From IMG/VR virus record IMGVR_UViG_3300045988_174992: a stretch of DNA of 64,000 nucleotides; one strand, 5' to 3'. Numbering within the stretch: position 1 is the first letter of the stretch; each line of letters opens with the position of its first letter. Positions 6,103 through 61,883 of the stretch are shown one piece after another. Made by a program: the position numbers and the translations under genes. This stretch comes from a virus. The notes under the pieces were generated by a model, which worked only from the letters and a program-made list of their open reading frames with translations, was not told where the DNA came from and did not search any database.

Positions 6103-6225
6103 ATTTTTATCTATTATTAATTAAACGTAATTTGATAGAGGCTTTTTACTTACTTCTGTTATTTTTAAAAAGTAACATTAACCTAATTTAATATATAGGT
6201 CAAAATTTATCCTATCAAATACGAA

Positions 6226-7803
6226 ATGGCAAAGAAATGTCTAGTATATGAGACACTTGGCAACATAACTGCAATGAAGGTTAAGGAGTCTCTTGACAAT
6301 AATGAAATTCGCCTTTCTGGTGTATTCGGTGTTTGTGGTATTAAGAATGGCAATAATCGAATCTACAGTAAAGAGAATTACGGCCGGATGGTAGAAAGTT
6401 TGCAAAAGACAATAGCAACAGAAGGTTGTCTTGGTGAACTTGAACATCCAAATTCAATGAATATTAATCTAAATAATGTTTCACACAAAATTGAAAGTGT
6501 TCAAATGCATGAAGATGGTACCATAACAGGTACTGTTGTATTGCTTGATACCGAGAAGGGTCGTAATGCTAAGGCTATTGTAGAAGCTGGTGTACCTTTG
6601 TATATCAGTTCTCGTGCACTTGGTTCTATCGATGAATCTGGTAATGTAACACTTACCATGCTTAAGACTTATGACTTAGTTGGTACACCTGGTTTCTCAC
6701 AAGCAAGTTTACACCTAGATGAAAATCAGAAGTTTGAATCATTAAATGAATCTATGTGTGCAGTAATTCTTGAAGGTGAAGATGACAACGATGATGATTC
6801 AAATAAAGACAAAGATAAAGACAAAGATAAAACAAATATGAAAGACTTGAAAGAAGCAGTTGATAAGCTTAGTGAAAAGGTAGAAAGCCTCGAGGCTGAA
6901 CTCCATGTAGCTAAGGAATCTATCAATGAAAAGGATGAGCAAATCCAAGCTCTTACTGAACAAGTTTCTGAATTCAAGCCTACTAACTATGATGCTATTG
7001 AATCTTGGATTAAGGAAGAATTCAAGCCTGAATTCAGCCAAGAAATGGCAAATGGTGTACAGAAATGGGTAAGTGAAGAGTTTGCTCCAGTTGTTCAGAA
7101 TTGGGTATGTGAACAGTTTGCTCCTGAAGTACAGAAGTGGGTAGTAGAGCAGTATTCACCAGAAGTTCAGAAATGGATAGTGGAGAATTATTCACCAGAA
7201 GTTCAGAAGTGGGTAGTAGAGCAGTATTCACCTGAAGTACAAAAGTGGATTGTTGAAAATTACTCTGATGAATTACAGAAGTGGATTGTAGAGCAGTACT
7301 CTCCTGAAGTTCAGAATTGGATTGTTGAAAATTACTCTGATGAATTACAGAATTGGATTACCGAGCAATTCGGTAAGGAATTGACTAACAAGATTAATGA
7401 GAATGTTTCTGAATATCTCGAATCTAAGTCTAATGACAAGTTCGAGAATATTGATAGAATGCTTGAGATGCTTGAAAGTGGTCAAGGTTCTAAGGAAAAT
7501 GAGATTCAGATGTTGAAGGAACAGCAAGAGAAGAATCTTGGTAAGTATGCAAATTGCTATGCTATTGTAAACATGCCAAATGAGTATCGCCCAATGTTTG
7601 AAGGTTTGAGTGAGCAAAAGAAGGATGAGATAGCTCTACAGTCTCGTGCTTATGACTTTACTAAGACTGGTGTAATGGAAAGCTTCTGGGCTGGTATTGA
7701 CTTCAATGAGAAGCCTGTACAGAATATCAATGAAAACCATAATCAAAATCCAGTAGATAACTATATGGCTAGTATCGCTGCTCAGATGATGGCTTTACGT
7801 TAA
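6226..7803 (+). CDS. prohead protease fused to scaffold-like repeat domain (T4 gp21/gp22-like)
   Basis: N-terminal ~170 aa resemble gp21-type prohead protease (GELEHP, ISSRALGS regions). An acidic KDKDKD linker, a coiled coil and 9 x 12-aa repeats follow. Directly upstream of the capsid gene. Confidence 0.7.
   Translation: MAKKCLVYETLGNITAMKVKESLDNNEIRLSGVFGVCGIKNGNNRIYSKENYGRMVESLQKTIATEGCLGELEHPNSMNINLNNVSHKIESVQMHEDGTITGTVVLLDTEKGRNAKAIVEAGVPLYISSRALGSIDESGNVTLTMLKTYDLVGTPGFSQASLHLDENQKFESLNESMCAVILEGEDDNDDDSNKDKDKDKDKTNMKDLKEAVDKLSEKVESLEAELHVAKESINEKDEQIQALTEQVSEFKPTNYDAIESWIKEEFKPEFSQEMANGVQKWVSEEFAPVVQNWVCEQFAPEVQKWVVEQYSPEVQKWIVENYSPEVQKWVVEQYSPEVQKWIVENYSDELQKWIVEQYSPEVQNWIVENYSDELQNWITEQFGKELTNKINENVSEYLESKSNDKFENIDRMLEMLESGQGSKENEIQMLKEQQEKNLGKYANCYAIVNMPNEYRPMFEGLSEQKKDEIALQSRAYDFTKTGVMESFWAGIDFNEKPVQNINENHNQNPVDNYMASIAAQMMALR
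7057..7380 (+). repeat. nine in-frame 36-nt tandem repeats inside the protease/scaffold gene
   Basis: Encodes VQKW(I/V)VE(Q/N)YSPE-type 12-mers x 9. Confidence 0.9.
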
Positions 7804-9906: not shown

Positions 9907-12900
9907 ATGGCAATTCCAGTATATTTGCAGAACTTTAAGCATGCTGGCCTGTACAGAGTTGTTTTTGACAAATCAACCGTATTGAGTCAGGATACAAATG
10001 TTCTTCGTTTACTTGTTGGATATTCTGATAAGGGCCCATTCAACATTCCTACTTATATCCAAAGTGCTGCTGATTTTATCGCTATGTACGGTAATATCAA
10101 CAAGACACAAGAGCGTCGTGGTAATTTCTTCCACCGTACTGCTTTACAGATGTTGAGTGTATCTCCTATTCTTTGTTTGAACTTGAAGAAGTTTGATACA
10201 GAAAATGTTACAGGTGCTCAAATCAACACTAACTTCAATGCTAAGGATACTATTGATACTGTACAGATTCCAGTAGCAGATGTTTACGATACTACTCGTT
10301 TCTGGTCATTGGATCCAGAAAAGCTTAATGAAGTACGTGGATCAGAATATATCAATATCGCTACTACTGATGTAAAAGCTAATTCTGGTACTTTCTTCAT
10401 TCGTAAGGCTTCTGGTAGCAAAGTAAGTTCTTACAATGTTACAGTAAGTGATTGGTATAAGGATGCAGGTGAAGCTGTTCCTGAATTCCTTGAAGGTTAT
10501 GAAAATGAACTTATGTCAGCATTCTTTGCTGAAGTTTATGTATTCAGTGGTAAGTTTACTGCTGATCAAGTTCTTGCTTCTGAAACTTTAAAGAATTACT
10601 TTATTGTAGATAAGAACGGTAAATTGAAGCTTCGTCAATATGTAAAGGACAGCTTTGGTGACTATAACGATACTCTTGACTATCTCTTCGAAGATGAGAC
10701 AAGTGGTGCTATTGGTCATTATGTTGGTTGTTTGATCCCATATTTCAAGGATAAGAATGGCAACTATGCTTCTCTTGATATCATATTCAATCTTGATTCT
10801 GATGCACACCACATGATGATGAGCTTCAATGAAGATATGCTTTATGAATATGGTACGGCTAACATTGACATGTCAGGTGCTCGTTGGATCTCTACTTCAG
10901 ATTCTACTCCCGACGACAATACACATATAGAAATCGATGGTTCTGATGTTGGTCATAAACGTGCTAATATTTACAAGCAGTATGGTACTAGCATTGTTTG
11001 TATTGACAGACTTTGGAAGGGTACTGCTTTAACATCACTCCTTGGTAATGTTGATGCTCCGGTTGTTTCTGCCAAGACACATTTCCGTACAAACATCTGG
11101 TCAGATGAAGATACTATCAAGCATCCTCTTTCTTATAAGAAATCTAAGAAGATCAGTGGTAATATGTATGTTCAGTCTTGGACTAATACAACTATTACTT
11201 TAGGAGCTATTGGTAAATCCACTAAGGGTGAAACTCAACGTATCACTATTGATTTAAGCATGGTTTCTAATCCAAATGTAAACTATATCCTTTACGAACT
11301 TGGTGCTGCTTATAAGAAGACAGTTGGAGGTGTAACTTCGTATGTTCCATTTGAGTCAGGTCTTGGTACAGTTTACAAATCAACTGATGCTTATGACAAA
11401 CCAGAGAATACCAATGGTCCTAAGAAGGTAATTACTTCACTTTCTAGAGATTTGGATAGTGCAGATGATGATAAAGTTATCTTAAGTTCTGAAGTTGTTA
11501 AGTGTGATATTGAAGATGTTTACATTACTACAAAGACAGAATACCTCAATCCAGATACTTTAATTGATACAAATAATAAGTATGCTTCTTGGAATGTATA
11601 TGGTCCATCTGTTACATTCATCCCGTTGAATGAAAACTGGACACTTACAGCTGATGTATATGATGAAACAGATGAAGATGCGGTACATACCTATCATTTG
11701 ACAGCTCCTGCTACAGCTGATACTACTATTCTTGCTATGCTTCAGAAGGGTGATCAGTTCTTAGCTGTAGATGGTAAGATTGATATGGATGGTGATGGCG
11801 ACTATTCTGATGAGGTAAATAATGGTTACTATGACCTTTGCTATGTTCAGGAAACAGAAACTATTACAGATGAATATGGTAATCCAAAAGAGTATTCTAT
11901 AAAGTTCACTGGCAATATAGCTACTTATGAAGGTGCTAGTAAGTCAGATAAAGATGTAACTATTTCCAATAGTGAATATAACCTTCTTGATGCAACAGAT
12001 CAAGCAAAATATTCTCCTAAGAACTGGTTGGTTAGCTATAAGAAAACAGGTCCTAGAACTTTGACAGCTGAAGCTTATGATGCAGCAACAGATAAAACAG
12101 GATTTGTCGCATCTGCCATTGTATTCTCTAAGCAAGTTACAGCTTTAGAATATAATACAATCTTAAATGATACTGCACGTAGCATGTGTACTAAAAACTA
12201 TCATTATCATAAGATTGCAACATCAGATTCAAATAACGATAATATAACAGGTGCACGATATAAAACACTTTCTGAAACGGAAAAGAAAGAATATAAGTAT
12301 GTAGAACTTGATACTTGGACATTTGTCTATAATGATATCAAACAGTTACATGCATCAGACGCCGGCCTTAAGAAACCTATTCAAGTAACAACTTCTGATG
12401 GAGGACAATTCTATGTTGATGGTTTTGCTAATGATGATTTGAATGTAGGTAAGACTATCACTACAAATACTATTGGTTTGAAATATGATGGTACTGATAA
12501 AATCGGTTATTATGTTGCAACGTATACAAATCCAGCATTTAAGTTTGGTTCACAATTAGAAATACTTACCGATGCAGAATATCAGAATATCAAGCCAATT
12601 TCTGCAGAGAAATATAATGGTCTTACCGAAACAGAAAAAACAGCTTATAATAGTACTACAGCTAATTATACTGAAAATCGTGGTATTAAAAGTTCTGAAA
12701 CTCCAGGTCATTATTTGATTGGTTATTCTGAATTAGTAGCTAATACTAATGAATGGATCAAGACAGCAGCACAAAATGAAACAACTTATGGTAAGTATCT
12801 TGTTCGTATTGAAAATGGTTTGAACCAAGAGATTGGTACAATGGAACCTGTATACTTGAAGGGTTATACTTATGAACATCCAAAGCCAGATGGGGTTGGA

Positions 12901-13890
12901 CAACGTGCTAAGCTTGAATGGCAGAACTTCCAATTGTCAGCATTGACTGAATATAAAGGTCTTCGTACAGGTCTTTTGAATAAGTCAGAAATCGATTTCA
13001 GATATGTTATCGATGGTTTTGAAACTTATGTTGATGCTGGTGCTAAGAAGGTACTTTCTTATCTTGCTAAGCAGAAGCAAAATGCATTCGCCATTCTTAA
13101 CTTCCCTTCTGTTAAGACATTTGTAAAGTGCCCATACAGTTCATTTACTGATGCTAAGGGAGTATTCAATGTACAATATGTAATTGATGGATTCAATAAG
13201 AAGAAAGCTCATACAACGGCATTCTCTCTTCCATCAAATGATGAAGGCGCTAGCTTTGCAGCTTTCTATACTCCATTGAAGCTTTCTGATGGTACTATTG
13301 ATTCTGTTGTTCCATCTGCAGGTCTTGTATCTAACTTGTTCATGGAGAAGTACAATTCACGTCTTCCTTATGAAATTGTAGCTGGTCCTAACTACGGTGC
13401 AATGTCAGTATCTGGTCTTGTTGGTCCTGATTATAATTATAGTAGTGATGAACTCAACATAATTGAGCCTTTTGGTGTAAACTGTATGGTATACCGCCCA
13501 AGCTTTGGAACATTCATCAATGCTAACCAAACTGCTAAGCAGACACCTAAGTCAGCATTGAGTTCTGTTAACGTTCGTGAGTTGGTTATCTACATAATGG
13601 ATGAAGTTGAAAAGATTCTTCAGTCTTATCAGTGGGAGTTCAACAACCAGACTGTACGTAATAAGATTAAGGATCGTGCTGATTCTATCTGTGCTAGAGT
13701 TCAGGCTAATGGAGGTATTCAAGCTTACTTGAATGTCATGGATGACTCTAACAACACACCTGATATTATTGATAATGAGATGGCTATCTTGTCTACTCAT
13801 ATTGAACCAGGTCGTGGTATGGGTAAGATGGTACATGAGTTGACTCTGTATCGTACAGGTCAGATGAATTCTACTATTCTTGGAGAATAA
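9907..13890 (+). CDS. tail sheath protein with very large central insertion (1327 aa)
   Basis: Sheath-like N-terminus (AGLYRVVFD) and C-terminal domain (GVNCMVYRPSFGTFINANQT...LTLYRTGQ); lies between capsid and tube genes. Confidence 0.7.
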   Translation: MAIPVYLQNFKHAGLYRVVFDKSTVLSQDTNVLRLLVGYSDKGPFNIPTYIQSAADFIAMYGNINKTQERRGNFFHRTALQMLSVSPILCLNLKKFDTENVTGAQINTNFNAKDTIDTVQIPVADVYDTTRFWSLDPEKLNEVRGSEYINIATTDVKANSGTFFIRKASGSKVSSYNVTVSDWYKDAGEAVPEFLEGYENELMSAFFAEVYVFSGKFTADQVLASETLKNYFIVDKNGKLKLRQYVKDSFGDYNDTLDYLFEDETSGAIGHYVGCLIPYFKDKNGNYASLDIIFNLDSDAHHMMMSFNEDMLYEYGTANIDMSGARWISTSDSTPDDNTHIEIDGSDVGHKRANIYKQYGTSIVCIDRLWKGTALTSLLGNVDAPVVSAKTHFRTNIWSDEDTIKHPLSYKKSKKISGNMYVQSWTNTTITLGAIGKSTKGETQRITIDLSMVSNPNVNYILYELGAAYKKTVGGVTSYVPFESGLGTVYKSTDAYDKPENTNGPKKVITSLSRDLDSADDDKVILSSEVVKCDIEDVYITTKTEYLNPDTLIDTNNKYASWNVYGPSVTFIPLNENWTLTADVYDETDEDAVHTYHLTAPATADTTILAMLQKGDQFLAVDGKIDMDGDGDYSDEVNNGYYDLCYVQETETITDEYGNPKEYSIKFTGNIATYEGASKSDKDVTISNSEYNLLDATDQAKYSPKNWLVSYKKTGPRTLTAEAYDAATDKTGFVASAIVFSKQVTALEYNTILNDTARSMCTKNYHYHKIATSDSNNDNITGARYKTLSETEKKEYKYVELDTWTFVYNDIKQLHASDAGLKKPIQVTTSDGGQFYVDGFANDDLNVGKTITTNTIGLKYDGTDKIGYYVATYTNPAFKFGSQLEILTDAEYQNIKPISAEKYNGLTETEKTAYNSTTANYTENRGIKSSETPGHYLIGYSELVANTNEWIKTAAQNETTYGKYLVRIENGLNQEIGTMEPVYLKGYTYEHPKPDGVGQRAKLEWQNFQLSALTEYKGLRTGLLNKSEIDFRYVIDGFETYVDAGAKKVLSYLAKQKQNAFAILNFPSVKTFVKCPYSSFTDAKGVFNVQYVIDGFNKKKAHTTAFSLPSNDEGASFAAFYTPLKLSDGTIDSVVPSAGLVSNLFMEKYNSRLPYEIVAGPNYGAMSVSGLVGPDYNYSSDELNIIEPFGVNCMVYRPSFGTFINANQTAKQTPKSALSSVNVRELVIYIMDEVEKILQSYQWEFNNQTVRNKIKDRADSICARVQANGGIQAYLNVMDDSNNTPDIIDNEMAILSTHIEPGRGMGKMVHELTLYRTGQMNSTILGE

Positions 13891-23036: not shown

Positions 23037-23065
23037 AATATAGATAAATTGTATAGAATTTCAAA
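23037..23065 (-). promoter_or_regulatory. phage consensus promoter
   Basis: AATATAGATAAATTGTATAGAATTTCAAA upstream of the topoisomerase operon. Confidence 0.55.
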
Positions 23066-23081
23066 AATATCATAAACAAAT

Positions 23082-23110
23082 AAAAGGTACTCTATATTAG
23101 GGTACCTTTT
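23082..23110 (-). terminator. terminator after the PolB N-part
   Basis: AAAAGGTAC...GTACCTTTT. Confidence 0.6.
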
Positions 23111-23117
23111 GTATTTA

Positions 23118-24671
23118 TTATGATTTACTATTCTCTTCCTCTTCTCTTATCTTTATAAGTCTATCAATTTCCATCATTACTGGTCCTTGTAATGACCAAT
23201 TCAAATATTTGTAATGGTCTCGACGTTCCTTTTGAATTCTTTGCATTTTCGCGAACATGTATTCTTTATCATTTTTGTATACAGTTCCTTGCAATGATAC
23301 AAAATAATTAGGGTCTTTTCTGAACTTATCAAGCTCTTCTTCTGTCCATGGAATTTCTGTATATCTTCCAAAACTGTCTGGACCTACTTTATTTGTAACA
23401 ATAGATTCCATTGATATGTTGCAAGTTCGAACTACTGATGGATAAAGTGAAGCAAAATCATCACATACACTATATTCCCAACGTCCTGGAACACATCCAC
23501 AAAAAGCACCTTCATAATTTACTTTTGTTCTTTCAACAGCATCATAATCCCATACTACATGTCGATCTTCATCATAAAAACATCTGAACAAATTAGCTGT
23601 TGTCAAAGCCACCTGACCCAATGCTTTCTGAGCTGGAATTCCTGTTACTGTTGCCATAGAACAAGGACTTTCAATACATTTGAAACGATAATGAATCAAA
23701 GCATTCAAGCAAGAGTCGATAGCATTATAGTAAACAAACAATGGGAAATCCTTTTCATAACATTCCTTCATTGTTCCTTCATATTTTACTTTATGAGCAT
23801 TAACTCCATGACTACCAACCCAATCTAACGAATATGATTCATAAGGTCTCATTGAATACTCATAAGATTTGATGAGCTCCATATAATCCCATATCATGCA
23901 ACCTTGTGGTGCTGGAATACTATATTTTGTACCATCCATCTCTGACCAAGAAATCTTATTGATTTCTCCAACAACACTTGCGGATCTCATCAATTGCATT
24001 GCTTTGAACTTTCCAAACAACTTTACTGTTCTATTCCAAATATAGTTCCAATCAAATCGATAATAGTTCCATCCAGCAAGACATCCGATCTTTGGCATTA
24101 TTCTAGTAAACCAATGCTCAATCATTGATTCCTCAGTTTCAAAATATTGATAATATACTTTTGGTGTAAAACCTTTTTTCTTTAATAGGTTTTTCGCAAA
24201 GTCATTATCTTCTATATATTTAAGGTATCTTTCCTTCAATTCTTCTTGTTCATCAGAATTCAATGGTTTGATACCTAATACCATTACAGACAAATCTGGA
24301 CCAACAAGACTTATCAACTGAATTCTTTGTTCTGCCTTTTCTGGTTCTGGGAATTCATCAGAAATTTCGGTTTCTATATCACTAAAGTAAATTCTTGGAA
24401 ATCTCATCGCCATTACTTCCTTATAGATATCTTCTGGCAAATTGTACAAGAATTCCAACTGGTCAAACTCATTTGGTTGATATTTAGATGCATCCTTAGA
24501 TACTACATCACATTTCTTACCATCCCATGTATACTTCTTTCCATTTGGATTGTACTCATAAGTCTTCCAGTGATGCATCTGTTTTGAATAGCATTTTCTA
24601 TTACCATTTTCATCCAAATAGAAAATATAATACGTCTGATTCTTTCTTAACCAAAATCTGTCAATTATCAT
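23118..24671 (-). CDS. family B DNA polymerase, N-terminal part (exonuclease domain through motif A)
   Basis: Exo I FSDIETE, Exo II NYYRFDWNY, Exo III YYNAIDS, pol motif A DFASLYPS; ends before motif B; own terminator 23082-23110. Confidence 0.9.
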   Translation of the reverse strand: MIIDRFWLRKNQTYYIFYLDENGNRKCYSKQMHHWKTYEYNPNGKKYTWDGKKCDVVSKDASKYQPNEFDQLEFLYNLPEDIYKEVMAMRFPRIYFSDIETEISDEFPEPEKAEQRIQLISLVGPDLSVMVLGIKPLNSDEQEELKERYLKYIEDNDFAKNLLKKKGFTPKVYYQYFETEESMIEHWFTRIMPKIGCLAGWNYYRFDWNYIWNRTVKLFGKFKAMQLMRSASVVGEINKISWSEMDGTKYSIPAPQGCMIWDYMELIKSYEYSMRPYESYSLDWVGSHGVNAHKVKYEGTMKECYEKDFPLFVYYNAIDSCLNALIHYRFKCIESPCSMATVTGIPAQKALGQVALTTANLFRCFYDEDRHVVWDYDAVERTKVNYEGAFCGCVPGRWEYSVCDDFASLYPSVVRTCNISMESIVTNKVGPDSFGRYTEIPWTEEELDKFRKDPNYFVSLQGTVYKNDKEYMFAKMQRIQKERRDHYKYLNWSLQGPVMMEIDRLIKIREEEENSKS

Positions 24672-24707: not shown

Positions 24708-24737
24708 AATATAGTTAATTAAGTTTTCCAAGTTCAA
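24708..24737 (-). promoter_or_regulatory. weaker promoter-like motif
   Basis: AATATAGTTAATTAAGTTTTCCAAGTTCAA upstream of the PolB N-part (TTGAAC in place of TTGAAA). Confidence 0.4.
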
Positions 24738-24748
24738 TGTTAACAATT

Positions 24749-24783
24749 AAAAAATGGAACTCTTGATTAATCAAGAGTTCCAT
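24749..24783 (-). terminator. rho-independent terminator
   Basis: Perfect 30-nt palindrome ATGGAACTCTTGATT/AATCAAGAGTTCCAT with a U5 tail in minus sense. Confidence 0.75.
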
Positions 24784-24860
24784 TCAATATTTTATATATA
24801 ATATTGTTCAACATAAAGAACGTGTTCAATTATATTGAACATCATCAATTCATTGAACAC

Positions 24861-28841: not shown

Positions 28842-30887
28842 CTAATACAATTTAATTTCAATATTCTTTTCTCTAGCGCGCTTCATCTTACCAGTATTTG
28901 ATTCTAATGAATTAGTGAATACGATCTTCACTTCTTTCCAAGAACCAGTCATTCTATATTCTGGATGACACTTCAAGAATTCTGCTTTGCTAGAATAGTT
29001 ATTTGGTTCGCCTGTCAATATCACAGGAATCTTGTCATTTTCTTTCTTAGTATCTGCTAACTCTTTCTCTGATAGCTTGAAGGAATCTAATGACCATCCA
29101 TTGAAATCAAGAATCTTTTTGAATCTCTTCCAATTTGATGATTCTTTATCATCAACCCAATCATAAGCAATATGTGACATGCTTGTAAAGTCATAAGGCA
29201 ATCCAATCAGCTTATTCTCTATCTGTTGAGCTACTTTATCTCCGCACAACCTAAAGTTGCAAGACAAAATAATATCCTTCAATTTGATATTCTTAAGAAG
29301 CTTGGTATATGCTTTATTTACATTAGAACCTGTCTTACCACCTATGGCATTCTCAATTTCTGTTGGTGTACATAGAAGAATATTCCATGGCATTTCTTTT
29401 GCTTCAATACCAAAGAATTCATCTGGTTCGCAATCCTTCTTCTTCCATTTGATAAAATCTTGTACCGTTGATGTTCCAAATCCAGGAATCTTGAAACTCA
29501 ATGCAGAATTCAACAATTCAAATTCATTATCAATCTTAGAAGCCATTACATGACAACCATCAATATAGCTATCTGATGATGGAAAGCTTTCTCCTAATTT
29601 AGCGGGATCAAAATTTGTATAATCATAAACTTTGTATATATAAGGAATAATATCACCAGCTAATGAAAGTACAACCTTGGTTCCAACACTGATTTTTCTG
29701 TCCATCAGATAACCTGCGTTGAATGCAGATGCCCTTGTAATCTTCTTACCATCCATATATACGGGATCAGTAATGATAGTAGGAATATATTCACCTGACT
29801 TACCAAGATTCCATTCAATATCAATTACTGTTGTTGGCTCAGTCATAGGAATGTACTTGATAGCAACACAATCTGCTGGTCGACGTTCAGTCAAGTTGTT
29901 CTGCCTTTCTGATTCTACTGGTTTGATGACAATGCCATCCTGAGAATATTCTGACATATTTCTGTATTCTTCATACTTCTTATATATGCTAATCAAGTCA
30001 TCTACAGTATTCAGTTCAATACCTTCATCATAGAAGCTTGGGAAGAATGTATTGTATTCAAATTGATTATCAGTAAGAAGACGAGTCCAATCTAAATCTT
30101 TCCATTCACCATTCTTCTTTATTCTGTAATCATAGATAACAGGGAACAGATATACATATTCTGGAACATCCTTATCAATTCTATTTAGCATACCGGAAAC
30201 AAAAGCTCTAGTATTTGCGAACTTATCTGCAAATCTCTGCTTGAATGTTGACTTGCTTACAAGTACTTCACCTCGTAATGTTACCTCTGAAACATAACCG
30301 GATCTTTCCATTACAAAATCAAAGAAACCACCTTTGCAATCAAAGATAGGCTTAATCTGATTAGAAATATCCTTACCATATTCTCCATCACCACGGCCAG
30401 AGTATGTTATATCTAAAGTACCATCTGACTTCTTTGTAATATGAATTTCAAATGAGCAACCATCATATTTTGGCGTAACTATTACTTTACATACTTTCTC
30501 TTTATCATTGTATATATAACTGAAAATAGAATTCAAGTAAGTAGCCCAATCAATACTACCATCTGCCTTCTCATGAATCTGTACTTTAGATAAGCTACCC
30601 ATCATGAATGGATGCTTTACAGTATAATTGTCAGAATGCTTTGAACCGACATAGGACTTATTTTCTTGACCTAATGACTTCTCCAAAGTATCATATTCAT
30701 TATCATTAAGAATTTCCTTACCGGTATTGTAATAAGCACCTTTTGCTTTGTCAAGAAGAAATCTAGCTTCATCATCTGTCAAATTGTTGTAATCTCTAAA
30801 TTTCATTACGAGAATATCAACATCTTTTGACATATCATAAGATGGGTTACGTTCACAATTTAAATTTTCCAATATTTTTGTATTCAT
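28842..30887 (-). CDS. ligA: NAD-dependent DNA ligase
   Basis: N-terminal Ia-like region (YYNTGKEILNDNEYDTLEKSL); adenylation motif KYDGCS; 681 aa. Confidence 0.75.
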   Translation of the reverse strand: MNTKILENLNCERNPSYDMSKDVDILVMKFRDYNNLTDDEARFLLDKAKGAYYNTGKEILNDNEYDTLEKSLGQENKSYVGSKHSDNYTVKHPFMMGSLSKVQIHEKADGSIDWATYLNSIFSYIYNDKEKVCKVIVTPKYDGCSFEIHITKKSDGTLDITYSGRGDGEYGKDISNQIKPIFDCKGGFFDFVMERSGYVSEVTLRGEVLVSKSTFKQRFADKFANTRAFVSGMLNRIDKDVPEYVYLFPVIYDYRIKKNGEWKDLDWTRLLTDNQFEYNTFFPSFYDEGIELNTVDDLISIYKKYEEYRNMSEYSQDGIVIKPVESERQNNLTERRPADCVAIKYIPMTEPTTVIDIEWNLGKSGEYIPTIITDPVYMDGKKITRASAFNAGYLMDRKISVGTKVVLSLAGDIIPYIYKVYDYTNFDPAKLGESFPSSDSYIDGCHVMASKIDNEFELLNSALSFKIPGFGTSTVQDFIKWKKKDCEPDEFFGIEAKEMPWNILLCTPTEIENAIGGKTGSNVNKAYTKLLKNIKLKDIILSCNFRLCGDKVAQQIENKLIGLPYDFTSMSHIAYDWVDDKESSNWKRFKKILDFNGWSLDSFKLSEKELADTKKENDKIPVILTGEPNNYSSKAEFLKCHPEYRMTGSWKEVKIVFTNSLESNTGKMKRAREKNIEIKLY

Positions 30888-36788: not shown

Positions 36789-37991
36789 TTATTTAATTCT
36801 ATATTTAGCACCTATGATAGCATTAGCTGCAGCAAATGAACCAGTCATCTTCATCATTCTATCTTTCCAAGTGAATACAATACCTTCTGTAGAATTCAAC
36901 TTGTTTCCAAGTTTTTGAAGTCTTAACAATTGATCCTTAAGCTTATCTTTGTCTTCTTGAGTACCTTTCTCATCAACAAGCTTCTTAGTGGCTTCTATCT
37001 CATTCTTCAAATTGATTATTGCTTTGTCTTTGACTCCATCATTAATCAAACCAGATGTAAGTTCAATTACTTTATTTGACATATCTAAGAACAGGTCATC
37101 AATTGGTTCGATAACATCTTTAACATATTTCTTATAATCTTTCTTATCTATAGAAACAATTTCATCAGCATGTTCAGGGTAGCTCTTCTTCAATATTCTT
37201 ATATTTACACTCTTATCTGAATTGAACCATCGGTTGAAGAATGCATCCTTTTCAGTCATCCATTCTGGTGCTATAATTTCAAAACGTTTCTTTTTCCAAT
37301 CTTCTATAGTAGCATCTTTTCCTAAACCTTCAGATTTGAATAAGTCAATAACTTTCTTTTTATATTCATTAGCAAACTTATTGCTGTCTTTAGTAACTTG
37401 AATAATTATATTAGGTGTAAGCTTGGCTTTGTCATCCTTTTCTATAGCCTTTTGAATAATACCAAGTCCATCTTTGGTAACACTATCCTTTTTCCATTCA
37501 TCACCTTCTTTCTTATATACCCAAATATTATGGAAGTCAACCTGATCATCATCATAATACATGATATTAGTAGTACCTGATACTATACATTCACAGTTTA
37601 CTAACAATCTTGTATTAGGATCAGGATTGAAGAATTTGCTACCAATTCTTTTGAATATCTTTTCAAGTGTATTACCAGCAGATACAAATGCTTTTTGAAC
37701 GGTTGGTTTGTCTTTCCATTTTTCAATCATATCTTGGATAGTCATACCTCCACGTTCTGAATTCAAGTCACCTTTGTTTCTTATAAAAACTACTTCATCC
37801 TGATTATTCATAGATGCTTGTATGTTAGTACCATCTAATTTCTCTGTAGCATTAGATATCTTACCTCCAAACAAATCATCTATCAAATCAAGTAAATCTT
37901 GGCAGGTGAAGTCAGTTTCATCAATTACATGCATCATGTGACCACTAGCTCCACCTTCAAAGATTTGTACATATTGAGTTAAATTAATCAT
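36789..37991 (-). CDS. ligase-like nucleotidyltransferase (KxDG) with CTS-like leader
   Basis: N-terminus MINLTQYVQIFEGG; motif I-like EKLDGTN; C-terminal EGIVF / KMTG (motif IV/V-like) at unusual spacing. Confidence 0.5.
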   Translation of the reverse strand: MINLTQYVQIFEGGASGHMMHVIDETDFTCQDLLDLIDDLFGGKISNATEKLDGTNIQASMNNQDEVVFIRNKGDLNSERGGMTIQDMIEKWKDKPTVQKAFVSAGNTLEKIFKRIGSKFFNPDPNTRLLVNCECIVSGTTNIMYYDDDQVDFHNIWVYKKEGDEWKKDSVTKDGLGIIQKAIEKDDKAKLTPNIIIQVTKDSNKFANEYKKKVIDLFKSEGLGKDATIEDWKKKRFEIIAPEWMTEKDAFFNRWFNSDKSVNIRILKKSYPEHADEIVSIDKKDYKKYVKDVIEPIDDLFLDMSNKVIELTSGLINDGVKDKAIINLKNEIEATKKLVDEKGTQEDKDKLKDQLLRLQKLGNKLNSTEGIVFTWKDRMMKMTGSFAAANAIIGAKYRIK

Positions 37992-54671: not shown

Positions 54672-55979
54672 TTATTCAGCTGCCTTAATATTTATTCGTT
54701 CTTTTATTCTCTTCAGAATCTGAACTGTTGGTTCAATCTGCTCAATAATCTCATCCATAGGCTTGTATGCCATAGGAGACTCATCTAATGTTGACTTGTT
54801 GACAGAAGTTGAACAAACATCCTTCATTTCTTCGACAAATTCATCCATAGAAAGATTTGCCTTAGCAGCAGAACGTGACATCAATCGACCGGCACCATGA
54901 GGAGCAGTACAATTCCATTCAGCATTTCCTTTACCTACACAAATCAATACACCATCTCGCATATTGATAGGAATCACAAGTTCACGTCCATAAGCGGCAT
55001 TGACAGATCCTTTACGAATAATCATATCGTCAAAGTCAATGTAGTTATGCATTGTATTGATGACACGTGCCATAGAAGCACCTTTGACAATCTTAGTATA
55101 GATTTCTGTCATCTTATCCGAAATAAGCAAATGATTGTACTTGGCATAAGTCTGTGCAATTACCATATCAGTAAGATAGCCAATCAGATTCTTACCATTC
55201 AGATAGCCTGTTGGAACAGATGATACAAAGTCTTCCTTTGCATTCTTAATTCGCTCATTCCATTCTGACTTAGGATACATATCCTTTATCTTTTCAATAT
55301 GCTTTGCCCATTCAGAACTATCAACATGATAAGGCTTGTTTGCAACATTCATCCAGTACTTTGCTACCTTCAAACCAAAGTTGCGAGAACCACAATGTAT
55401 CATTATATATCCATTACCTTCGTCATCAGTATCATAAGACAAGAAATGATTGCCACCACCAGTAGTACCTAATGACTTCCAAAAAGTACCTTCATCCATA
55501 CCAATTCGGTTCAGCATATCGGAAATGTACTTTTCATTTACATTTACATTGTTTACAAAATTGGTTGTAGCAACAGCTCTGTCAATAGCAGTATTGCACA
55601 TCTTGTAAAACATCTTCTCATCAGCAATCTTCTTATCATAAATAGTGAATCCAGTAGGAATATCCTTCTTCCATCGATGTTCAAGCAATGCATAAGATTC
55701 CTCTGGACATGGCTTTGACATCTTGATGCAAGTTACCTGACAACCAATATCAACACCTACATGGCTTGGATTTACCATTGGATTATCCTTATCAATAGTA
55801 GAAGAGAAGCCAATTGTTATCGACTGCCCCAAGTGGATATCCGGCATTATTCGTATTTTCTGATCCTTGAATGCAGGACAGTCACAGATACTGTAAACCA
55901 TCTTCAATGCATCTTCTTCAACTGTCTTTGCAAAAATCTTGCAATCCTTATTGTACTTTCCAATTATATTGTATTCCAT
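54672..55979 (-). CDS. rtcB: RtcB-type RNA ligase (3'-phosphate/5'-OH)
   Basis: Motifs MPDIHLGQS, GGGNHFLS, APHGAGR; 435 aa. Confidence 0.85.
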   Translation of the reverse strand: MEYNIIGKYNKDCKIFAKTVEEDALKMVYSICDCPAFKDQKIRIMPDIHLGQSITIGFSSTIDKDNPMVNPSHVGVDIGCQVTCIKMSKPCPEESYALLEHRWKKDIPTGFTIYDKKIADEKMFYKMCNTAIDRAVATTNFVNNVNVNEKYISDMLNRIGMDEGTFWKSLGTTGGGNHFLSYDTDDEGNGYIMIHCGSRNFGLKVAKYWMNVANKPYHVDSSEWAKHIEKIKDMYPKSEWNERIKNAKEDFVSSVPTGYLNGKNLIGYLTDMVIAQTYAKYNHLLISDKMTEIYTKIVKGASMARVINTMHNYIDFDDMIIRKGSVNAAYGRELVIPINMRDGVLICVGKGNAEWNCTAPHGAGRLMSRSAAKANLSMDEFVEEMKDVCSTSVNKSTLDESPMAYKPMDEIIEQIEPTVQILKRIKERINIKAAE

Positions 55980-58968: not shown

Positions 58969-58997
58969 AAAAAGAGATGCTTGTTTTAAGCATCTCC
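58969..58997 (-). terminator. terminator enclosing the PolB C-part stop codon
   Basis: GAGATGCTT-loop-AAGCATCTC, U5 in minus sense; the TAA stop lies in the loop. Confidence 0.6.
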
Positions 58998-61348: not shown

Positions 61349-61364
61349 ATATTAGAATATAGAA

Positions 61365-61398
61365 AATGGACACTACTTTGTTCAAAGCAATGTCCATT
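61365..61398 (-). terminator. hairpin between 61418-61792 and the endonuclease-like gene
   Basis: AATGGACA...TGTCCATT, followed in minus sense by TTTCTATATT. Confidence 0.45.
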
Positions 61399-61417
61399 TC
61401 ATTTACAAATAAAGGAC

Positions 61418-61854: not shown

Positions 61855-61883
61855 AATATAGAAAAGCTTCAAAAAATTTCAAA
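61855..61883 (-). promoter_or_regulatory. phage consensus promoter
   Basis: AATATAGAAAAGCTTCAAAAAATTTCAAA. Confidence 0.6.

Follow-up and report, generated by a model that had tools for sequence, protein, structure and literature searches.

The two open reading frames (ORFs) analyzed here together encode one family B DNA polymerase (PolB) of the T4 gp43 type, split between motifs A and B, and we consider it very probable that their products work as a non-covalent two-subunit enzyme with a composite active site. Both lie in a 64,000-nucleotide stretch of viral DNA, referred to below as the window, which is part of a 276,731-bp human-gut metagenome contig, ERZ919512 k127_125124. An earlier sequence-only reading of this stretch had recognized a split polymerase in two ORFs, and their coordinates, their strand and all of the motifs that it quoted were found as described:

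23118-24671, minus strand: PolB N-half, 517 aa, with the N-terminal domain, the 3'-5' exonuclease (Exo I-III), palm motif A and the first long finger helix
58986-60278, minus strand: PolB C-half, 430 aa, with a short head, finger-tip helices, the second finger helix with motif B, palm motif C, KKKKY and the thumb

The translated N-half contains FSDIETE, NYYRFDWNY, YYNAIDS and DFASLYPS, and the translated C-half KLLNNSAYG, YSDTDSVY and KKKKYL. Taken across the two ORFs, the set of proofreading and polymerase motifs (Exo I-III, A, B, C and KKxY) is complete; polymerase and proofreading activity are predicted. Pfam searches assign the N-half to DNA_pol_B_exo1 (E 8e-14) and the C-half to DNA_pol_B (E 7e-8), and the two match RB69 gp43 at residues 109-489 (E 4e-24) and 556-839 (E 7e-6), respectively.

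Alignment to intact PolBs, a check that the earlier reading had proposed, indicates that nothing is missing where the halves meet. We aligned the junction with four contiguous relatives at about 55% identity (P0034, P0184, P0029 and P0049) and with further contiguous genes present as single ORFs of 918-944 aa in L098-L102, L104 and L106. Zero residues are lost between the N-half and the C-half, whose summed length is 947 residues. The N-half closes, after ...EIDRLI, with an 11-residue tail (KIREEEENSKS), and the C-half, past a head of about 10 residues, picks up the next aligned segment (KKVFSEQCQQFMKDKL versus PMKFHDDVINLMNEKF). The same end point is found in 111 of the 120 best N-half homolog clusters, at 53-97% identity.

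The concatenated halves were modeled with AlphaFold2 from a block alignment of 40 N-half, 40 C-half and 11 contiguous homologs. The fused model (mean pLDDT 87, pTM 0.76) has the complete N-terminal, exonuclease, palm, fingers and thumb fold, and a Foldseek search matches it to full-length RB69 gp43 with a TM score of 0.70-0.75 and E of 2e-43. In this model the N-half ends just past a 43-residue helix (472-514), the C-half contributes short tip helices followed by an antiparallel long helix (553-588) that bears motif B, and low confidence near the break is confined to residues 511-530. Since the N-half ends after helix 472-514 and the model superposes on RB69 gp43, where the break falls between the equivalents of positions 489 and 556, the model locates the break to the tip of the fingers, in the segment that links the two finger helices of a gp43-type PolB. 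The junction alignment and the model thus bear out the earlier placement of the break in the fingers region, between motifs A and B.

Across homologs, the Exo I-III residues D98, E100, D207, Y315 and D319, motif A D405 and R484/K488 on the first finger helix are invariant in the N-half, as are motif B K61/N65/Y68, motif C D142/D144 and KKKY in the C-half. With motif A and the finger R/K on one polypeptide and motifs B and C on the other, the polymerase active site would be composite. We suggest that the exonuclease and motif A come from the N-subunit, along with the first finger helix and its triphosphate-binding R/K, and that the C-subunit brings in the second finger helix, which bears motif B, as well as motif C and the thumb. 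Contacts along the antiparallel finger helices and in the palm would join the subunits non-covalently, probably in a 1:1 ratio, and the active site would form only once both polypeptides have come together. These observations support the earlier proposal that the enzyme assembles from two polypeptides, although we infer the physical assembly itself.

One could imagine instead that the halves have diverged in function and are no longer obligate partners, the N-half acting as a stand-alone 3'-5' exonuclease or with some other partner, and the C-half with a different N-module. The exonuclease domain is complete within the N-half and the halves occupy separate transcription units, both of which suit such a scheme, and an additional split polymerase, a minimal Pol III alpha, has been reported in related jumbo phages (Iyer et al., PMC7824862). 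We nevertheless find functional divergence quite unlikely, because the joint invariance of motif A and R484/K488 in the N-half and of motifs B and C in the C-half is to be expected only if both contribute to one active site. The halves also co-occur one-to-one in sibling and in complete relative genomes, both have the same promoter variant, and the fused model gives a complete gp43 fold.

The earlier reading had noted that an intact polB elsewhere in the genome would make the halves decaying fragments of a disrupted gene, with replication carried out by another polymerase. The window covers 64 kb of a genome of about 280 kb, which leaves some room for this alternative, but several observations make it highly improbable. 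Comparison with siblings gives dN/dS values of 0.048-0.067 for the N-half and 0.073-0.101 for the C-half, a range (0.05-0.10) that reflects strong purifying selection and hence argues that the halves are not decaying, and the lengths and catalytic residues of both are kept across hundreds of homolog clusters. No second PolB and no other polymerase family was found within the 64-kb window, and each complete genome of a relative in the phage collection has exactly one place matching the N-half and one matching the C-half.

The two subunit genes are separated by 34,314 bp with 54 ORFs of 50 aa or longer, almost all on the strand of the two halves, close to the 34 kb and roughly 50 genes estimated earlier. 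In the direction of transcription, along the minus strand, the C-half comes before the N-half, so that the permuted order described in that reading is also correct. The intervening segment includes the essential genes for topoisomerase II, ligase, ThyX and a sigma factor. Four sibling IMG/VR contigs with 95-98% amino-acid identity (172955, 171958, 172530 and 170375) all encode the two halves on a single strand, the C-half upstream. The C-to-N spacing is 35.9, 35.3 and 37.2 kb in three of them; in the fourth, a 282,933-bp contig, the halves wrap the contig ends and would be 34.1 kb apart if the contig is circular.

This comparison of synteny, also suggested by the earlier reading, bears directly on its concern that a misassembly might lie between the halves. 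The source is a metagenome assembly, in which two contigs could have been joined or a segment inverted. However, the retention of the C..34-37 kb..N layout in four siblings argues that it is not a misassembly, the arrangement and spacing being common to five long contigs with the window included. Both local contexts are confirmed by independent short Logan contigs, in which the N-half stop and the genes that follow it recur, as do the C-half start and the genes that precede it, and each ORF has its own start, its own stop and extra terminal residues. An assembly artefact is therefore the least credible of the explanations that we weighed, and we regard it as exceedingly improbable.

Products encoded in the window include a T4-type gp23 capsid protein, a gp21-type prohead protease, a tail sheath protein and SbcC/gp46, together with a two-subunit topoisomerase II, an NAD-dependent ligase, ThyX, dCMP deaminase, RtcB and a sigma factor. 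By this gene content the genome is that of a T4-like jumbo myovirus, corresponding to 'group 2' of Iyer et al. (PMC7824862). A megablast search of 10 kb of the window against the INPHARED phage collection gave no DNA-level match. Comparison of the flanks of intact relatives (53-55% identity) with those of each half detected no shared neighbours.

The expression signals predicted around the two genes, together with a third gene that adjoins the C-half and was overlooked by the earlier reading, are as follows:

23080-23112, minus strand: hairpin and T-rich run right after the N-half stop codon
24708-24737, minus strand: promoter-like site TTGAAC-N18-TATATT upstream of the N-half, a consensus match belonging to the 17-site class described below
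24752-24785, minus strand: predicted terminator hairpin closing the gene upstream of the N-half, which sets the N-half apart as its own unit
58973-58997, minus strand: terminator hairpin overlapping the C-half stop codon
60281-61348, minus strand: free-standing homing-endonuclease-like gene (HEG), 355 aa, Pfam DUF7487, PHROG 'homing endonuclease' (E 6e-17)
61356-61400, minus strand: terminator hairpin (61400-61363) overlapping a promoter-like TTGAAC-N18-TATATT (61385-61356), upstream of the unit formed by the HEG and the C-half

Sequences of the form TTGAA-N16-19-CTATATT occur at 17 sites in the window against 0.31 expected; 16 of the 17 are on the minus strand, and they are intergenic and often right after hairpins (for example at 727-754, 23037-23064, 24708-24737, 61356-61385 and 61855-61882, all minus strand). 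They probably represent the promoter class of an early/replication gene block. The window's only two copies of the TTGAAC-N18-TATATT variant precede the N-half and the HEG/C-half unit, and the hairpin/promoter-like site at 61356-61400 is kept in siblings. Judged from these signals, each half is in its own transcription unit, bracketed by hairpin terminators and served by its own promoter-like site, in keeping with the earlier description of independently transcribed genes, and the terminator that it assigned to the N-half corresponds to the hairpin and T-rich run at 23112-23080. We infer that a single promoter class regulates both halves jointly, and the common promoter variant would serve to co-time expression of the two subunits.

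A further possibility is that the products are covalently rejoined, by split-intein trans-splicing, RNA trans-splicing or programmed DNA rearrangement. Close relatives do use a split intein, as the annotation of PTm1 also indicates, though at motif C and not at the finger tip. In the window, however, no intein domain (PF14890 or other) was found in either half by Pfam search, in accordance with the earlier finding of no intein at the junction, and the 11-residue N tail and C head of about 10 residues are too short to be intein halves. The window contains no match to an Rfam intron or other RNA family, and no tRNA was found there. In siblings just ~36 nt separate the upstream hairpin from the C-half ATG, and the permuted order and the essential genes between the halves also speak against rejoining. 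We consider any of these covalent routes very unlikely.

The HEG sits between the promoter-like site and the start codon of the C-half, with its stop 2 nt before the C-half ATG. PDB and NCBIfam searches gave no match for its product, and similarity to the PTm1 'VSR endonuclease' is weak and lies outside the nuclease region. A segment of about 1.06 kb carrying the HEG is precisely missing from all five of the sibling genomes compared (L013-L017, around 9964-9985; 95-98% identical), in which the promoter-like site is followed by a ~36-nt 5' leader and then the C-half ATG. The HEG in the window is thus a polymorphic insertion into the C-half leader. Because the five siblings have the same split without it, this copy is not read as the cause of the split in the window genome and may have arrived after the break.

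A causal role for this family of endonucleases is for the same reason drawn only from another locus, L169, and from recurrence elsewhere. In L169 (2410-6368), whose lineage is sister to contiguous polymerase genes, the N-half, a DUF7487 HEG and the C-half abut, and the break is at the same residue position; it is as if HEG-mediated fracturing of the finger tip had been caught in the act at this locus. A DUF7487 HEG lies directly upstream of the C-half in L095 and L175. Siblings L010 and L011 have DUF7487 copies immediately before or after the N-half, and the copies flanking that gene (L010 8986-9927 and 11832-12392, L011 11644-12534, L006/L007 12516-13547) are absent from the window, all of which points to very active DUF7487 turnover around both polymerase genes. 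In L173 (6783-9656) and L175 (6989-11005), whose C-half is 75-87% identical to that of the window, a split intein interrupts the C-half once more, at motif C (YSDTDS|...HN|SVYT), and a DUF7487 HEG lies between the two intein parts, giving a three-gene polymerase. An analogous arrangement is annotated in PTm1 (L166 13696-16502), with gp239 as 'intein-containing split DNA polymerase precursor', gp240 as 'VSR endonuclease' and gp241. The DUF7487 ORF was also compared with the two ORFs between the halves in MA9V-1, and no homology was found.

We propose that a free-standing HEG of the DUF7487 family most likely invaded the finger-tip coding region and produced the break, and that the halves, once independent cistrons, would have been moved 34 kb apart by genome rearrangement. 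Among relatives the gene occurs in several arrangements. The polymerase gene is intact in loci within L098-L106 and in L022 and L025. In PAU, MA9V-1/2, PTm1 and most of the environmental loci L026-L084 it is split, with 1-7 kb of genes between the halves, and in L092 and Lak-B5 it is both split and permuted, the C-half being immediately before the N-half in the former and about 6 kb before it in the latter. Dispersed halves characterize the window clade, L021, L096, L097, L105 and L170, as well as LR756500 (about 13 kb apart) and LR756502, LR756504 and LR745206 (100-280 kb apart, on opposite strands). PAU, PTm1 and MA9V-1, all with the same finger-tip break, are cultured, viable phages; the MA9V-1 paper gives the two ORFs as separate polymerases, with no remark on a split (PMC10537231). 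In a crude neighbor-joining tree the window falls in a uniformly split subclade, and in the sister gut clade split genes are intermingled with contiguous ones, which suggests repeated breakage or re-fusion at a hot spot. One relative, P0215 (687 aa), has a glutamine-amidotransferase domain fused to a PolB fragment that extends from N-half residue ~430 on, through an intact junction, and is either a chimeric assembly or an odd fusion.

The closest precedents are the bicistronic gp43 genes (43A/43B) of the T4-related phages 44RR, 25, 31, 65 and 133, as these are presented in later accounts of the original reports (Petrov and Karam, 2006, 2010, via PMC3061061 and PMC2988022). The window pair resembles them in its T4 gp43-like lineage, in the position of the break between the finger helices, in cistrons that each have a start and a stop, and in the association of a free-standing HEG with the break (a seg-like gene in phage 25), although the HEG of the window belongs to a different family, DUF7487. 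Phage 25 gp43A and gp43B co-purify and are active (PMC2988022), and by analogy the products of the window pair would form an active complex as well. In those phages, however, the cistrons are 2 bp to 3 kb apart in N-to-C order, whereas in the window 34.3 kb separates two transcription units with the C-half upstream. Papers describe finger-tip splits of gp43 only with cistrons so spaced, but the novelty implied by the earlier reading is overstated, the dispersal of a split PolB being already documented in Methanobacterium (PMC3061061), in PhiKZ (PMC13648687) and in public genomes of relatives.

In PhiKZ, as in the window, two genes far from each other specify a PolB, the C gene precedes the N gene, and motif A is on the N and motif C on the C polypeptide. 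The PhiKZ proteins gp82 (DNAP-N) and gp50 (DNAP-C) form a stable 1:1 complex that has been solved by cryoEM and has an RB69-like overall architecture (PMC13648687). The PhiKZ break is located in a large palm-insertion domain before the fingers, in contrast to the finger-tip break of the window. The PhiKZ enzyme is a divergent chimallivirus PolB of about 1369 residues with an Rhc accessory subunit, and the window enzyme is a classic gp43-type PolB of 947 residues, the closest solved relatives of which are RB69 and T4 gp43; it does not belong to the PhiKZ type. The split PolB of Methanobacterium thermoautotrophicum, which according to a secondary account is encoded by genes 85 kb apart and assembles into an active enzyme (Kelman et al., 1999, via PMC3061061), likewise has two far-apart PolB genes, but it is archaeal and its break falls within the palm, some 83 residues past the finger tip on the C-terminal side.

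Two other systems are also comparable. When Pfu polymerase is split near the finger tip, its fragments, even if expressed separately, reconstitute a fully active 1:1 complex whose kinetics match the wild type (PMC3061061); this split is artificial and corresponds to about residue 490 of the N-half (RB69 M489), some 27 residues before the natural break in the window. Fractured genes, as described by Dassa et al. (2009, PMC2677866), combine a split intein with a free-standing HEG and are similar to L173 and L175, where an HEG of the DUF7487 family lies between gene pieces broken at motif C. The window has a free-standing HEG beside the break with no Int-N/Int-C pair there; whereas fractured genes use protein splicing, no intein is found at any break in the window, and the finger-tip break would be healed non-covalently. 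In the literature that we searched we found no description of a dispersed finger-tip-split gp43 in T4-like jumbo phages. The combination of a gp43 finger-tip break, dispersal and permuted order sets the window apart from the cases in known papers; public genomes, unannotated or uncommented, already hold comparable or more extreme cases. The link of the DUF7487 HEG family to the break and the graded series of intermediates are arguably new.

These findings imply that a two-piece replicative polymerase is the rule across a large, abundant clade of T4-like jumbo phages from the gut and the environment, with three pieces in some relatives, and that the genes for the pieces can drift anywhere in the genome. 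Annotation pipelines label the pieces 'DNA polymerase II', 'family B' or 'hypothetical', which affects PolB marker-gene phylogenies of jumbo phages as well as completeness checks. The relatives form a graded natural series, from intact genes through abutting HEG-fractured halves, halves a few kb apart and permuted halves to halves separated by tens to hundreds of kb, with a split intein added in some. While the mechanism is not new, one can follow in this series how an essential enzyme encoded as a single chain can be converted by a homing endonuclease into subunits with dispersed genes.

We also considered whether the finger-tip split has been co-opted rather than merely tolerated as a scar of HEG invasion. 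The engineered Pfu split relaxes selectivity toward gamma-phosphate-modified dNTPs, and the natural split might similarly relax nucleotide selectivity and permit replication with modified nucleotides, or it might allow replication to be gated via one subunit. If so, selection for the split itself would account both for how common the split form is in gut jumbo phages and for its retention once the HEG is lost. We view co-option as unlikely, if somewhat less so than functional divergence of the halves.

Other features of the genome merit brief mention. The tail-sheath protein (9907-13890, plus strand) is unusually long at 1327 aa, with a large N-terminal extension; only its C-terminal ~300 residues match sheath families. 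An RNA-ligase-like protein (36789-37991, minus strand), RtcB (54672-55979, minus strand) and an NAD-dependent DNA ligase (28842-30887, minus strand) are encoded in one genome, a combination that suggests a capacity for RNA repair, possibly for countering tRNA-cleaving defences. Just upstream of the C-half region in locus L004, on the opposite strand, lies a predicted 404-aa TnpB/OrfB_IS605 protein (Cas12f1-like_TNB; 6221-7435 of that locus), and the corresponding window position would extend from approximately 62.8 kb to past the right end.
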